From Minisyncoccota bacterium (lineage in GTDB: Bacteria > Patescibacteriota > Minisyncoccia > Phycocordibacterales > UBA9973), in NCBI GenBank assembly GCA_041648595.1, contig JBAZOQ010000001.1, positions 82,242 through 146,241 on the forward strand: 64,000 nucleotides of DNA, read 5' to 3'. Under the pieces are notes generated by a model that saw only the letters and a list, made by a program, of their open reading frames with translations, was not told the origin of the DNA and searched no databases. Both the position numbers and the translations under genes were made by a program. This document shows positions 45,024-49,626 of this stretch, one piece after another; the stretch's first letter is position 1, and every line of letters begins with the position of its first letter.

Positions 45024-45503
45024 TTAAATATTCTTCAAAAAACGAAGTGTGCTTTGTAAATCTTGAAAATTAAATTCTACACCTAATGATTTCGTTATTA
45101 CTTCTCCTAGCGTTGAAAATTTATAATTTAATACACTAACTTCAAAAACAATTTTTTTATCCTCTTTTGGCCACTGAATAATATCATGATATTCGTTTAC
45201 TATTGTGATTACTAAATCAGTTAGTGATGATTCTAAATTTGAAACTAGAAGAACATTAGCTTGATTGTAAATAACTTCATATTTATCTTTTAAACTTGGA
45301 TGATTTTTTATTTTTTCAATTTCACCAATAACTCTTTCAAGCTTTTCTTTGTAAAGAATAAAACCAGGAATTTTTTCATTCTCTTTTTCTAGTGATTTCA
45401 AAAGAACAAGTAATATTTTACTCACATCTGATCCTATTCGAGTGATTTGATCAATGGACTCTATATTTTTTCTATATTTCTCTAAAATTAATCCTGGCGA
45501 CAT
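45024..45503 (-). CDS. hypothetical protein directly downstream of the methyltransferase gene (possible partner or specificity component)
   Basis: A 159-aa, mostly helical protein with no PD-(D/E)xK or HEPN motif that I can confirm. Confidence 0.4.
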   Translation of the reverse strand: MSPGLILEKYRKNIESIDQITRIGSDVSKILLVLLKSLEKENEKIPGFILYKEKLERVIGEIEKIKNHPSLKDKYEVIYNQANVLLVSNLESSLTDLVITIVNEYHDIIQWPKEDKKIVFEVSVLNYKFSTLGEVITKSLGVEFNFQDLQSTLRFLKNI

Positions 45504-45520
45504 TTTTTTATAAAATTATT

Positions 45521-47578
45521 TTAATAATTGATATTTAAATAATTTCGGCTGGATTTCTGTTCGGCAGTTGTAAAATAAATATCTCGCTCATACCAATTTT
45601 TTTGCGGATAAAGTTTTGCGGCAAAAAGAGGGAGTTTTTCGATAAAATTATCAGAACGAAGATAAAAACCACGAATATTGTATCTTGTAGCTCGCAATAG
45701 ATGTATGTCATGTTGTGTGATGGCAAAACCTTTTGGTACTAAATATCCAATAATATTTTTATTATAAAAAGATTTACCATCAACTTTCCTACCAGTTATT
45801 TGAGATCCGTCATCTTCACAATATATATTTGTAATAATGTCATCTTTAAATGTTCGACGATCATAATATGACTCAAGTGTACTATGAGCTTTTTTTATTG
45901 TGATTTTTTCAAGCGAAACAATTTTTTCTTCTTGCTCTTGCATATTTTGAGTATAAATATCAAATGCTTTTAAGGTTAATTCTTCAACACTTTGATTTTC
46001 ATTTTGCCAAGCAATACAACTAATTGAGCTTTCACTGGCATGAAAATATTTACGATTAAAAAGATATCCATCTATAAACTTTCTATTACCAAGACCAAGT
46101 GATTTCCAGTACTTAATCGGCGAAAATAGCACATAACAATCATTCGGTTTTGTTAAATAATATTTCCATCCACTCCAATTAAATTGATTCGAAATGTCAC
46201 GAGCAGTTGATACATTAGAGTTTGCCAGATTTTTTAAATCAAGTTTCATATTCTCAAACACAAAAGTCCCTTTGCTGGTTTTATTTGTTAAATTATCAGT
46301 ATTCGCAGCACTACTGTCTCTATAAGGTGGATTCTCAAATAAAATGATATTGGTCTTTTTATCTTTTACAAAATTATTTAGCTCGGTGATAGATTTGATA
46401 TACTCCTTACTTATTTTAATTTTTGTTTTTCCGAGTATAAATTGTTCACTCAAAGCATCGCCACCATTTACAAGAGGCTCACGCCCGGTAACCTCCACCG
46501 GTGGTGGAATAATCTTTTTTACCTTAAGACCAAACCGTCCATTCAAAACAATCCATTCTTTTAATTCATAAGTGTTAACGATGGCATGCGATAATTCATT
46601 ATTAAAAATATAATCATGAATATTTATTTTTGTTTTATATTTTTCTAGTTTGCCAATAGTTATTTGATTAAAATCACTAAATTTAATAAGGGAAAGAACA
46701 TTTGCTTTATCTTTTAAATATTTATCAACAAATTCATCTGAAAGATATTTTCGCAATTCGCTGATAGTAATGTCATTTACTAGTTTATCAGTTAAAAATT
46801 CCAAAAGATTGCCGGTGCCGGCGCAACGATCAAGAATAATATAATCATTGCCTTTGGGAATCTAAGCAATAGCTTTGCGAACAAGTTCAGTGGCTTTCTT
46901 GCAATAAGCAGGCGGTGTATAAAAAGCGCCTAGCTCCTTGCGATGCATACGATCGTTTAGAAGATCCATTATGTATTTGAAATCTTTTTCCTTGCCTTTC
47001 CATAGCTGAATAAATTTTTTAAAATGTTTTGGCTCTCGAAATTCTTCAAAAAGTTTGATTTTTGTTGCTCTGGGATTTTCATCATAAAAACGATTGGACC
47101 ATCCAACAACGTCATATATGTCAATTGTTACTTTAGTAAAATTGTTTGTTTGAAGCAACTCAGTGATACATTGAATGCCGACAGGTTTATCATATTTAAT
47201 AACTTCTGGTTTTAATGTTGTACTAAACTCATCATTACTCTTGCTGGCAGCACCGATAAAAGGCGGACAGTTTATATAATCACGGGCAAAATCTTGAGAA
47301 TTAAACAGATAGGCAATTTCTTGATTTAGATCCACTAATAAGATGTTTGCTGGAATGCTAATACCCTTGACGCGTATATGGTTAAGATATTTTAGTGTTT
47401 GAAAAAGTACAGCATTGATATTATTGATATTAGGCTTAAATTCAAATATATTTCCGTTATAGATACCGTCGGTGTTATTACTGAGTTCGGTATCCGTAAT
47501 TCCAAATTTTTTAAAAAATTCAAATTGGCCCTCGCGCTCAGATTGAAAGTTATTCCCAGATTTGAATGTTTTTTTCAT
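45521..47578 (-). pseudogene. N6-adenine DNA methyltransferase (gamma-class; motif X GAFYTPP, motif I ILDRCAGTGNLL, motif IV NPPY, C-terminal TRD) interrupted by a single in-frame TAG at 46862..46864
   Basis: Track ORFs 46862..47578 and 45521..46804 are in the same frame. The M of the downstream ORF is really a TTG Leu codon. Translation through the TAG gives ...VRKAIA*IPKGNDYIILDRCAGTGNLLEFLTDKL..., restoring the conserved AdoMet motif I between motifs X and IV. Confidence 0.7.
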
Positions 47579-47628
47579 AATTTTATTTCTCCAACTTTTT
47601 ATATAAAGTTTAGTTTTATTATTAAAAT

Positions 47629-48390
47629 TTACAATCCACTTAATTGACTGTTTAATTCACGTTCAAGTGTTAATCCAAAATCTTTGATAATCCCCTGTTG
47701 GTCAATTGGCAAAAAAGTTCCAAGTTCATTTTTAAAATTTATTTGTTTTGCCTCGGCAATAATAAAATCTTTCTTCATAGCGAGTTTTTTCTTTTGTTCA
47801 GAAGAAAGTCTCCCTTGGCGCATTATAATATAAAGATCATAAAAATCACGTGGTTTTTTTCGTTCAATTAATGCACCAAAAATTTTTTCATCAATCAACT
47901 CATTTTGTGGTAAATGATTAATTGTATAAGTAGGCACAAAATTATTTGAAATACTATCTAGTTCACCTTTTATAATTACATCACTTCGTGTTGAAATATT
48001 TATCTCTACACCAATCGGTTGATAATCAAACATTTGAAATGTAGCAATTCCTAAATACCCACCACTTGTTGTTCCAAATCGGTCACCAAGCTTGACTTTT
48101 ATTCCCATTTTTTCTATTTCAGAAAGTGTTTTTAAAAATAATTCTTCAATAAATAGTTTTACTTCATGTGGAGCAACACCAAAAAGAGAAAAATCTAAAT
48201 CTTCAGAAAATCGTGGACTACCATAAACAATACGAAGTGCCGTTCCACCTTTAAAAAGAAGTTTCTCAGAATCTGGCAATTTATACAATTCTCCTAAAAA
48301 AATATGTTGAAAATATTCTCGAATTACGTTCGGAAATATTCCCATTTGATACTGCCTACTTAATTTTTCCAGTGTTTCTATAGATATCAT
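47629..48390 (-). CDS. AbiEii-family nucleotidyltransferase toxin (type IV TA / abortive infection)
   Basis: FKGGTALRIVYGSPRFSEDLDFSL is the hallmark DUF1814/AbiEii motif. Its start overlaps the upstream gene's stop (ATGA). Confidence 0.8.
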   Translation of the reverse strand: MISIETLEKLSRQYQMGIFPNVIREYFQHIFLGELYKLPDSEKLLFKGGTALRIVYGSPRFSEDLDFSLFGVAPHEVKLFIEELFLKTLSEIEKMGIKVKLGDRFGTTSGGYLGIATFQMFDYQPIGVEINISTRSDVIIKGELDSISNNFVPTYTINHLPQNELIDEKIFGALIERKKPRDFYDLYIIMRQGRLSSEQKKKLAMKKDFIIAEAKQINFKNELGTFLPIDQQGIIKDFGLTLERELNSQLSGL

Positions 48391-48986
48391 TGTAATGTTG
48401 TCTTTATTATACCTGAAAGTTTTTTATTACCAAACAACGAAGCATATTTCTTTGCTCTTGTGGAATTAATTTTTTCTTTATTAAAACGAGAAATCGGTTT
48501 TTGTCCACTCATTAATCGCAAATAATTTGCGTCTACAAAAGCTTTTTCAGCATCTGCAATGTTAAAACCTAGACCTTTCTGTTTTTGAATTTCGTAACCA
48601 GTGTATGCAACTTTTTTTATTTTTCGATAAGAAAAAATTTTTCCTAATGCTTCAAACCTACGTGTAGCTTTAGTAGTTACTGAAGTAATTTCATAAACTG
48701 TCTCCGGAATAACTCCATAATATGAAAGTGCAAATTCAAGTGAAATATAAGATGGAGTATAAAGTTTACTAGCAACATAAACATCAGGTGGTAAGGTATC
48801 TGGAAAAACATAGAATCCTTTCTTAAGTTGTATTATAAATCCTTGTTTTTTATACCTGTGAAGTAGTGCAGATGCAGCAACAGCAGAAACTCCAAACAAA
48901 GAGCGAATATCACTTGCATTAAATATATATAACTTTTTACCCTTTATTTTTGAGGCAAAAAGTGTCTGATTCACCAATTTGACCAT
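48387..48986 (-). CDS. AbiEi-family antitoxin/transcriptional regulator (partner of AbiEii)
   Basis: It sits immediately upstream of, and translationally coupled to, the AbiEii gene. The size and N-terminal wHTH-like region fit AbiEi. Confidence 0.55.
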   Translation of the reverse strand: MVKLVNQTLFASKIKGKKLYIFNASDIRSLFGVSAVAASALLHRYKKQGFIIQLKKGFYVFPDTLPPDVYVASKLYTPSYISLEFALSYYGVIPETVYEITSVTTKATRRFEALGKIFSYRKIKKVAYTGYEIQKQKGLGFNIADAEKAFVDANYLRLMSGQKPISRFNKEKINSTRAKKYASLFGNKKLSGIIKTTLQ

Positions 48987-49057: not shown

Positions 49058-49324
49058 TTAACCCTTCATGTGTATATAAATTTCACGTAAAGGCTCATTA
49101 TCTTTTTTAATACGGTAAATATCTACTATCTCACCATCTAAATCAAAATCTTTTTTTTCTAATTCTTTACTAAAAGTAGGATCAGACTCAAGTTTAGATT
49201 CAGCGGTTGTACCACATGAAAAAACATCAAAAGGTTCAATTTTTTCTTTTAATCCCGATTCTTTTATCTTTTTTTCTAAAGATTTTTTAGGATCAAAAGT
49301 ATTTTCTATCATTCCAGTTTTCAT
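49058..49324 (-). CDS. small hypothetical protein, paralog of 49336..49626 (shared C-terminal motif VDIYRIK...Y.H.K)
   Basis: The two ORFs are tandem and align with each other. Confidence 0.4.
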   Translation of the reverse strand: MKTGMIENTFDPKKSLEKKIKESGLKEKIEPFDVFSCGTTAESKLESDPTFSKELEKKDFDLDGEIVDIYRIKKDNEPLREIYIHMKG

Positions 49325-49335
49325 AAATTTATTTT

Positions 49336-49626
49336 TTATTCTTTTATGTGTAAATATAATTTATATTTATTGTCTCCGTCTGTGCACTCAATTTTAATGC
49401 GATATATATCTACATTTTTACCATCTAGAATAACATTTTCAGCAATAGGTTTTTCATTTATTGGTAGCTTTTTTTCTATCATAATATACTCATATGGCTC
49501 AATATTTTCAATCCTACCTTCATCTATTGCTTTTTGTATTTCTTTTTTATAAAACTGCGTACCCTTATATTCTTGCTCTATTTTTACTTTACTACTATTC
49601 ACCTTGTCTATTTTACTTTGTTCCAT
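49336..49626 (-). CDS. small hypothetical protein, paralog of 49058..49324
   Basis: See the call for 49058..49324. Confidence 0.4.
   Translation of the reverse strand: MEQSKIDKVNSSKVKIEQEYKGTQFYKKEIQKAIDEGRIENIEPYEYIMIEKKLPINEKPIAENVILDGKNVDIYRIKIECTDGDNKYKLYLHIKE

Follow-up and report, generated by a model that had tools for sequence, protein, structure and literature searches.

The locus at 45516-47578 on the minus strand of the window (the whole 64,000-nt stretch of DNA that was analysed) is very probably a recent, irreversible pseudogene carrying two lesions, derived from a one-gene cassette that encoded an enzyme of ~820 aa with type IIG/IIL layout. It is an ordinary pseudogene of a type IIG/IIL-like family that annotation libraries have missed. 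The intact parent would have been a single chain of ~820 aa in four parts, among them an N-terminal PD-(D/E)xK-type nuclease, a variable target-recognition region and a conserved C-terminal domain. Like enzymes of types IIG and IIL, it would have recognised its DNA site through the variable region, methylated an adenine with its NPPY/SAM-binding core and used the D-ExK domain at its N-terminus to cut DNA that was not modified. In a Candidatus Paceibacterota lineage the gene then suffered two independent lesions, a CAG-to-TAG change at codon 239 and a deletion of 397 nt. It was observed directly that both lesions exist and recur in other assemblies, that relatives are full-length, that TAG serves as a normal stop and that dN/dS is low; that the parent both cleaved and methylated DNA we infer from its motifs, fold matches and genomic context.

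Read on the minus strand, to which all coordinates of the locus refer, positions 45521-47578 make up 686 codons with a single internal stop, the premature TAG at codon 239 (46862-46864). Translation confirmed the preliminary description of this stop as lying between methyltransferase motif X (GAFYTPP, 46910-46930, which aligns to LGIFYTP of DrdV) and motif I (ILDRCAGTGNLL, 46802-46837), with motif IV (NPPY, 46322-46333) further on. Upstream of the TAG, the 5′ fragment of codons 1-238 (46865-47578) holds a putative PD-(D/E)xK nuclease domain, with the putative catalytic motif D37-X8-E46-F-K48 (TDGIYNGNIFEFK) at 47435-47470, followed by a helical linker and motif X; the annotation treats it as a gene in its own right, for the hypothetical protein WC839_01355 of 238 aa. 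Past the TAG the ancestral frame continues (45562-46861) as far as the junction of the 397-nt deletion (45560-45561), taking in the methyltransferase core, an insert particular to the subfamily and a variable region for putative target recognition. From there the 686-codon frame ends in 13 out-of-frame codons produced by the deletion (45521-45559; EQKSSRNYLNINY and a new stop, TAA 45521-45523). The true 3′ end of the gene survives as a relic in another frame (45516-45560), with its last 14 codons (TEIQPKLFKYQLLK) at 45519-45560 and the ancestral TAA at 45516-45518. Gene callers report a 427-aa ORF at 45521-46804, whose product is identical to the protein WC839_01350 of a metagenome-assembled genome (MAG) of a Candidatus Paceibacterota bacterium. 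Its TTG ‘start’ (46802-46804) is the last Leu codon of motif I, at which intact homologs have the second of the two Leu residues in ‘GNLLEF’, and the earlier suspicion that this start was really a Leu codon is thus borne out by the homolog alignment.

A search of 5.8 billion proteins returned 3,235 relatives, the best 120 of which were listed. Of these, 116 have lengths of 796-847 aa (mostly 808-823) as single proteins and align with the fused query over 97-99% of its length, sharing 57-88% identity with it. Both halves of the locus align in one frame to uninterrupted proteins (88% identity, E = 0), a match that on these alignments is far beyond chance. Because 116 of the best 120 relatives are single full-length proteins, the two halves are not separate genes, and the possibility that relatives conserve them as such, which would have overturned the initial reading, does not hold. 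The same lengths, greater by about 130 aa, show that the initial estimate of a ~686-aa protein with a C-terminal target-recognition domain was mistaken. A functional split into two subunits was also considered and rejected, since only four of the 120 listed matches are shorter than 790 aa; one of these is the window locus itself and another is marked partial by NCBI. Separately, the protein P0049 (546 aa, found in NCBI, Logan and ENA; 78% identity) ends early with a divergent segment after NPPY, so that decay or truncation may have struck the family independently a second time.

The family extends well beyond these close relatives. An exhaustive profile search of 1.84 billion cluster representatives retrieved 689 clusters with a cut-off of E <= 1e-3, and 250 when this was tightened to E <= 1e-30. 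Counted at 50% identity, the family has at least 689 clusters; at 90% identity, the number exceeds 3,000. It is present in Patescibacteria, Prevotella, DPANN archaea and plasmids of Limosilactobacillus. Between motifs I and II, the window's subfamily has an extra ~60 residues; most members of the wider family do without them and measure 700-790 aa. This insert, helical, occupies residues ~264-323 of P0001 and ~46610-46789 of the window.

Conservation was assessed on a diverse alignment of 63 members at 26-61% identity. Invariant or near-invariant in these are D37, E46, K48, Q60 and Y64 of the N-terminal domain, G217, A218, T221 and P222 of motif X, and D250, R251, G254 and G256 of motif I; E341 and A375 are near-invariant, and N416, P417 and P418 of motif IV are invariant. 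GAFYTPP, DRCAGTG and NPPY, the motifs themselves, are likewise invariant or nearly so, and they align to those of DrdV. A set of 18 close members conserves E338/E341 in motif II and D374 in motif III; D37, E46 and K48 are invariant in this set as well as in 29 N-terminal domains. The family therefore presents a gamma-class N6-adenine methyltransferase core with the motif order X, I, II, III, IV (NPPY). Sequence entropy among close homologs peaks at aa 541-640, with further variable stretches at 421-460 and 381-400; a concentration of variability at aa 541-640 is what would be expected of a target-recognition domain.

Annotation libraries recover next to nothing of this. The fused window protein yielded nothing in Pfam, NCBIfam and PADLOC beyond one match at E = 0.03, and four intact homologs had no match in Pfam or NCBIfam. 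When the 63 diverse members were compared with the libraries, one matched N6_Mtase (E = 0.009), five matched one PADLOC MTase_II model, and a few other PADLOC models matched one member each; none of the 63 matched a type IIG model in Pfam, NCBIfam or PADLOC. The family is hence not a member of the curated models (Pfam N6_Mtase, Eco57I and MmeI domains, PADLOC type IIG, NCBIfam) and, because of the lack of any type IIG match in the three libraries, its assignment to restriction-modification rests on motifs and fold. A literature search by accession and by topic found nothing on the family.

A profile of close homologs had zero matches among PDB sequences, and the 63-member profile matched only DrdV (type IIL; E = 0.005), across motifs X, I and IV. 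The profile of the N-terminal domain gave no significant match to PDB sequences, with a single one at chance level. An AlphaFold model built from the 63-sequence alignment reached a pLDDT of 93.0 and a pTM of 0.90, and superseded an earlier model from 18 close homologs (pLDDT 64, weak Foldseek matches). Foldseek comparison of the new model with the PDB placed BpuSI (type IIG, 2.1e-8) and MmeI (type IIL, 3.8e-7) at the top, followed by CamA (1.8e-6), DrdV (2.1e-6), and then M.BseCI and BsaXI, all with probability 1.00. The fold is thus similar to that of solved type IIG/IIL members, at TM-scores of only 0.2-0.3, which are expected for multi-domain chains and fall short of proving equivalence domain by domain. 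In the model, E46 and K48 lie on the strand 43-48 and D37 just before a short strand at ~39-40, placing D-X8-E-X-K on a hairpin inside a predicted alpha/beta domain, which has no significant match to solved nuclease sequences. The near-invariance of D37-X8-E46-X-K48 and the best fold matches (BpuSI, MmeI and DrdV) support the initial proposal that the N-terminal domain resembles a type IIG nuclease module.

The gene is solitary, and its neighbours differ in all nine contexts examined; it thus stands alone, with a variable target-recognition region of its own. The pseudogene neighbours AbiEi/AbiEii in the window, the closest relative (L001) an AAA_15/AAA_21 ATPase, L004 genes for GmrSD_N and DUF2130, L007 MreC and PemK, and L009 housekeeping genes, while some homologs lie on small mobilisable Limosilactobacillus plasmids. 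Two of these contexts deserve description. The AbiEi antitoxin (48387-48986) and AbiEii nucleotidyltransferase toxin (47629-48390) genes, on the minus strand and overlapping by 4 nt, are directly upstream of the pseudogene and form with it a small defence/TA islet. On the Patescibacteria contig L004 (6302-10445), the homolog overlaps the preceding GmrSD_N (DUF262) gene by 11 nt and is followed by the DUF2130 gene, in what may be a composite defence operon. Intact homologs at 31-34% identity, annotated ‘hypothetical protein’, are found on the plasmids pAN417D of L. reuteri (L010) and pLF25067 of L. fermentum (L013). Around the pseudogene, the minus strand of the window also carries two adjacent small ORFs of 88 and 96 aa (49058-49324 and 49336-49626), with no Pfam match, which look paralogous and share ‘...DIYRIK...’ near their C-termini. 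A 159-aa ORF (45024-45503, minus strand), also with no Pfam match, starts 13 nt past the ancestral stop of the pseudogene and is absent beside intact homologs.

At the DNA level, similarity to two intact relatives (L001 and L011) runs from ~10 nt before the ATG to just past the ancestral stop (window 45513-47588), and the flanks beyond are all unrelated to those of L001 and L011. Because similarity is limited to the gene itself, the moving unit appears to be the single gene. No mobility gene or terminal repeats accompanying this cassette could be recognised in the comparison of the window with L001 and L011, and the phage collection held no homolog. Over its first 238 aa, the intact 820-aa protein P0272 (L011, Logan SRR30681595, 2501-4963) is near-identical to its counterpart in the window (roughly 95% by eye; both fall in one 90%-identity cluster), but blocks of divergence follow at aa ~420-440, 510-545 and 615-635. 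Such a mosaic, a pattern typical of specificity swapping in restriction-modification enzymes, is suggestive of recombination within the recognition region.

The parent family shares with MmeI, DrdV and BpuSI a single polypeptide with an N-terminal D...ExK domain, a central gamma-class N6-adenine methyltransferase (X-I-IV NPPY), a variable recognition region and a C-terminal domain, encoded by a stand-alone gene with no conserved partner. MmeI is described as having its endonuclease at the amino terminus, its methyltransferase in the centre and its recognition domain at the C-terminus, each molecule carrying a single PD-ExK motif (PMC2582602). The family differs from these enzymes in being unmatched by the Pfam, NCBIfam and PADLOC models that cover them, in being ~100-200 aa shorter than MmeI and DrdV, in the ~60-aa insert between motifs I and II of the window's subfamily, and in a C-terminal domain with four conserved Cys; the window copy is, in addition, dead. 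A distant match of the methyltransferase core to the BREX protein PglX/BrxX (9ewz) was obtained only with the first, low-confidence model. The family protein differs from PglX/BrxX in its far shorter length and its nuclease-like N-terminus, and none of the BREX partners (BrxA/B/C, PglZ, BrxL) was found beside the window copy or the homologs examined.

We considered that the parent could instead have been an adenine methyltransferase of DNA (or RNA) with an orphan or regulatory role, its N-terminal domain serving to bind nucleic acid rather than to cut it. The missing nuclease and type IIG profile matches agree with this, as does a degree of conservation across distant taxa (57-88% identity) that is unusually high. 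CamA and M.BseCI, which are methyltransferases with no N-terminal nuclease-like domain (also according to their PDB descriptions), are likewise strong fold matches (Foldseek E = 1e-5 to 2e-6 over ~370 columns) and share with the family the fold of the methyltransferase core and the motif order. The family nevertheless adds to that core a conserved N-terminal domain of ~200 aa with D-X8-E-X-K, near-invariant and on a hairpin in a predicted alpha/beta domain. Furthermore, its best fold matches are nuclease-methyltransferase fusions, several loci have defence-type or mobile neighbours, and its distribution is patchy and cassette-like, all of which makes an orphan methyltransferase an unlikely parent. 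We hence retain a nuclease-methyltransferase of type IIG/IIL layout as the probable ancestor of the pseudogene.

The second lesion had escaped the initial reading. DNA alignment of the window copy with two intact relatives (L001, L011) revealed 397 nt to be absent where 45561 meets 45560, a junction that shows no more than 1-2 nt of microhomology. In a tblastn search of the window with P0001, residues 1-678 aligned to 47578-45548 and residues 807-820 to 45560-45519, in another frame. The deleted stretch corresponds to about codons 679-810 of the intact relatives and, since 397 = 3 × 132 + 1, it shifts the frame, contrary to the initial view that the gene had no frameshift. The lost segment is a strongly conserved C-terminal domain, with an entropy of 0.4-0.6 bits at aa 641-720 and a pLDDT of 97-98, and its C689, C694, C701 and C717 are invariant in 18 close members. 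Because a 397-nt deletion cannot revert, the gene is irreversibly dead.

This result bears directly on the idea that an otherwise intact gene had been silenced by one nonsense mutation and could be switched on again. In its favour, the TAG is one transition away from CAG and the rest of the sequence is barely degraded. Yet the frameshifting deletion costs the gene ~132 codons in a domain of high conservation, the off state is found in every contig on record, and neither lesion has a homopolymer or simple-sequence tract: no tandem repeat or simple-sequence tract overlaps 46862-46864 or 45560-45561. Phase-variable type IIG enzymes of the Cj0031 type in Campylobacter jejuni switch through a repeat tract (PMC4889913). 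The window gene resembles them in being a type IIG-like gene in an ‘off’ state, but it has no repeat, and what keeps it off for good is a nonsense mutation together with a large deletion. The proposed reversion of a point mutation is thereby contradicted: the deletion, being unable to revert, excludes a revertible switch, to which we grant a very small probability at most.

Nor does the split gene look like an artefact of sequencing or assembly. The ENA MEGAHIT contig L002 (over 2.8 kb) and the Logan contig L003 from SRR8449812 (over 2.4 kb) match the window at 100% identity, and the identical stretches span both lesions. The exact 427-aa product, frameshifted tail included, is called on all five of the contigs on record, and each fragment has two GenBank accessions and is also found in ENA, Logan and JGI assemblies. 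Two identical contigs and the split ORF on all five make an assembly error unlikely, although these assemblies may share reads. A real genome with a sense codon and an intact gene would moreover require two artefacts, one for each independent lesion, and nothing direct speaks for it other than the metagenome-assembled origin of the source; we consider it highly improbable.

As for the first lesion, the position of the TAG aligns to Gln in relatives (CAG in L001, the closest, CAA in L007 and L009, and Gln in 90 of the 116 full-length homologs), and the TAG is a single C-to-T transition from the CAG of L001. TAG is an ordinary stop in the window: the 48 ATG-initiated ORFs of at least 150 aa end in 35 TAA, 10 TAG and 3 TGA, and the nine long ORFs other than the pseudogene that end in TAG adjoin the next gene in the usual way. 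The window encodes three tRNAs in total (Trp-CCA, Leu-CAA and Gln-TTG), with no suppressor tRNA of CUA anticodon among them. Recoding of TAG to Gln is known in some phages and would fit the Gln of the relatives, but a functional protein made by recoding or programmed readthrough is scarcely credible here, given that TAG ends nine other long ORFs at sensible gene boundaries, that all three stop codons are in use, that the window holds no CUA-anticodon tRNA and that even with readthrough the product would lack the C-terminal domain.

With both lesions in place, translation of the window copy would end at codon 239 and yield a 238-aa fragment that lacks everything from motif I onward. Any downstream re-initiation would occur after the glycine loop of motif I (GTG) and give a product with a frameshifted tail and no C-terminal domain. 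Since the 5′ fragment lacks motif I, and the 3′ ORF lacks motif X, the SAM-binding loop and the C-terminal domain, neither piece could yield an active methyltransferase, and both methylation and targeted cleavage are impossible.

The inactivation itself has left few other traces. The dN/dS of the window copy against L001 is 0.085 (Nei-Gojobori), with 0.076 upstream of the TAG and 0.091 downstream, and falls inside the range observed between intact family members (0.07-0.13). Where at least 98% of the 116 homologs agree, at 168 positions, the window copy is changed at one (I467N in ‘NQFIWSGW’); at the same positions intact controls are changed at 0-1 and a more divergent Prevotella copy at 7. 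By these measures the lesions are recent relative to the divergence from L001 (dS ~0.7). The dN/dS of 0.085 and the single change in 168 support the preliminary description of the locus as a recently inactivated gene of the gamma-class N6-adenine methyltransferase type.

Taken by itself, the locus represents routine gene decay, in which a streamlined symbiont-type bacterium lost a restriction-modification cassette. For annotators, it is useful to correct the ‘hypothetical proteins’ WC839_01350 and WC839_01355 to pieces of one pseudogene. The parent family, abundant, highly conserved, horizontally mobile and everywhere annotated ‘hypothetical protein’, may matter more than the locus. Tentatively, it could be a large uncharacterised clade of single-chain nuclease-methyltransferases, of at least 689 clusters, that current models miss, and perhaps a distinct type IIG/IIL-like subclass, which may have its own Cys-containing C-terminal domain and its own geometry of recognition and cleavage. 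If this is true, restriction-modification systems are undercounted in defence-system censuses of ultra-small bacteria. Since cultured hosts carry intact copies (Limosilactobacillus plasmids), testing is practical. Including the parent family in profile libraries for restriction-modification and defence would change the defence inventories of Patescibacteria, and the family might yield new type IIG/IIL enzymes.
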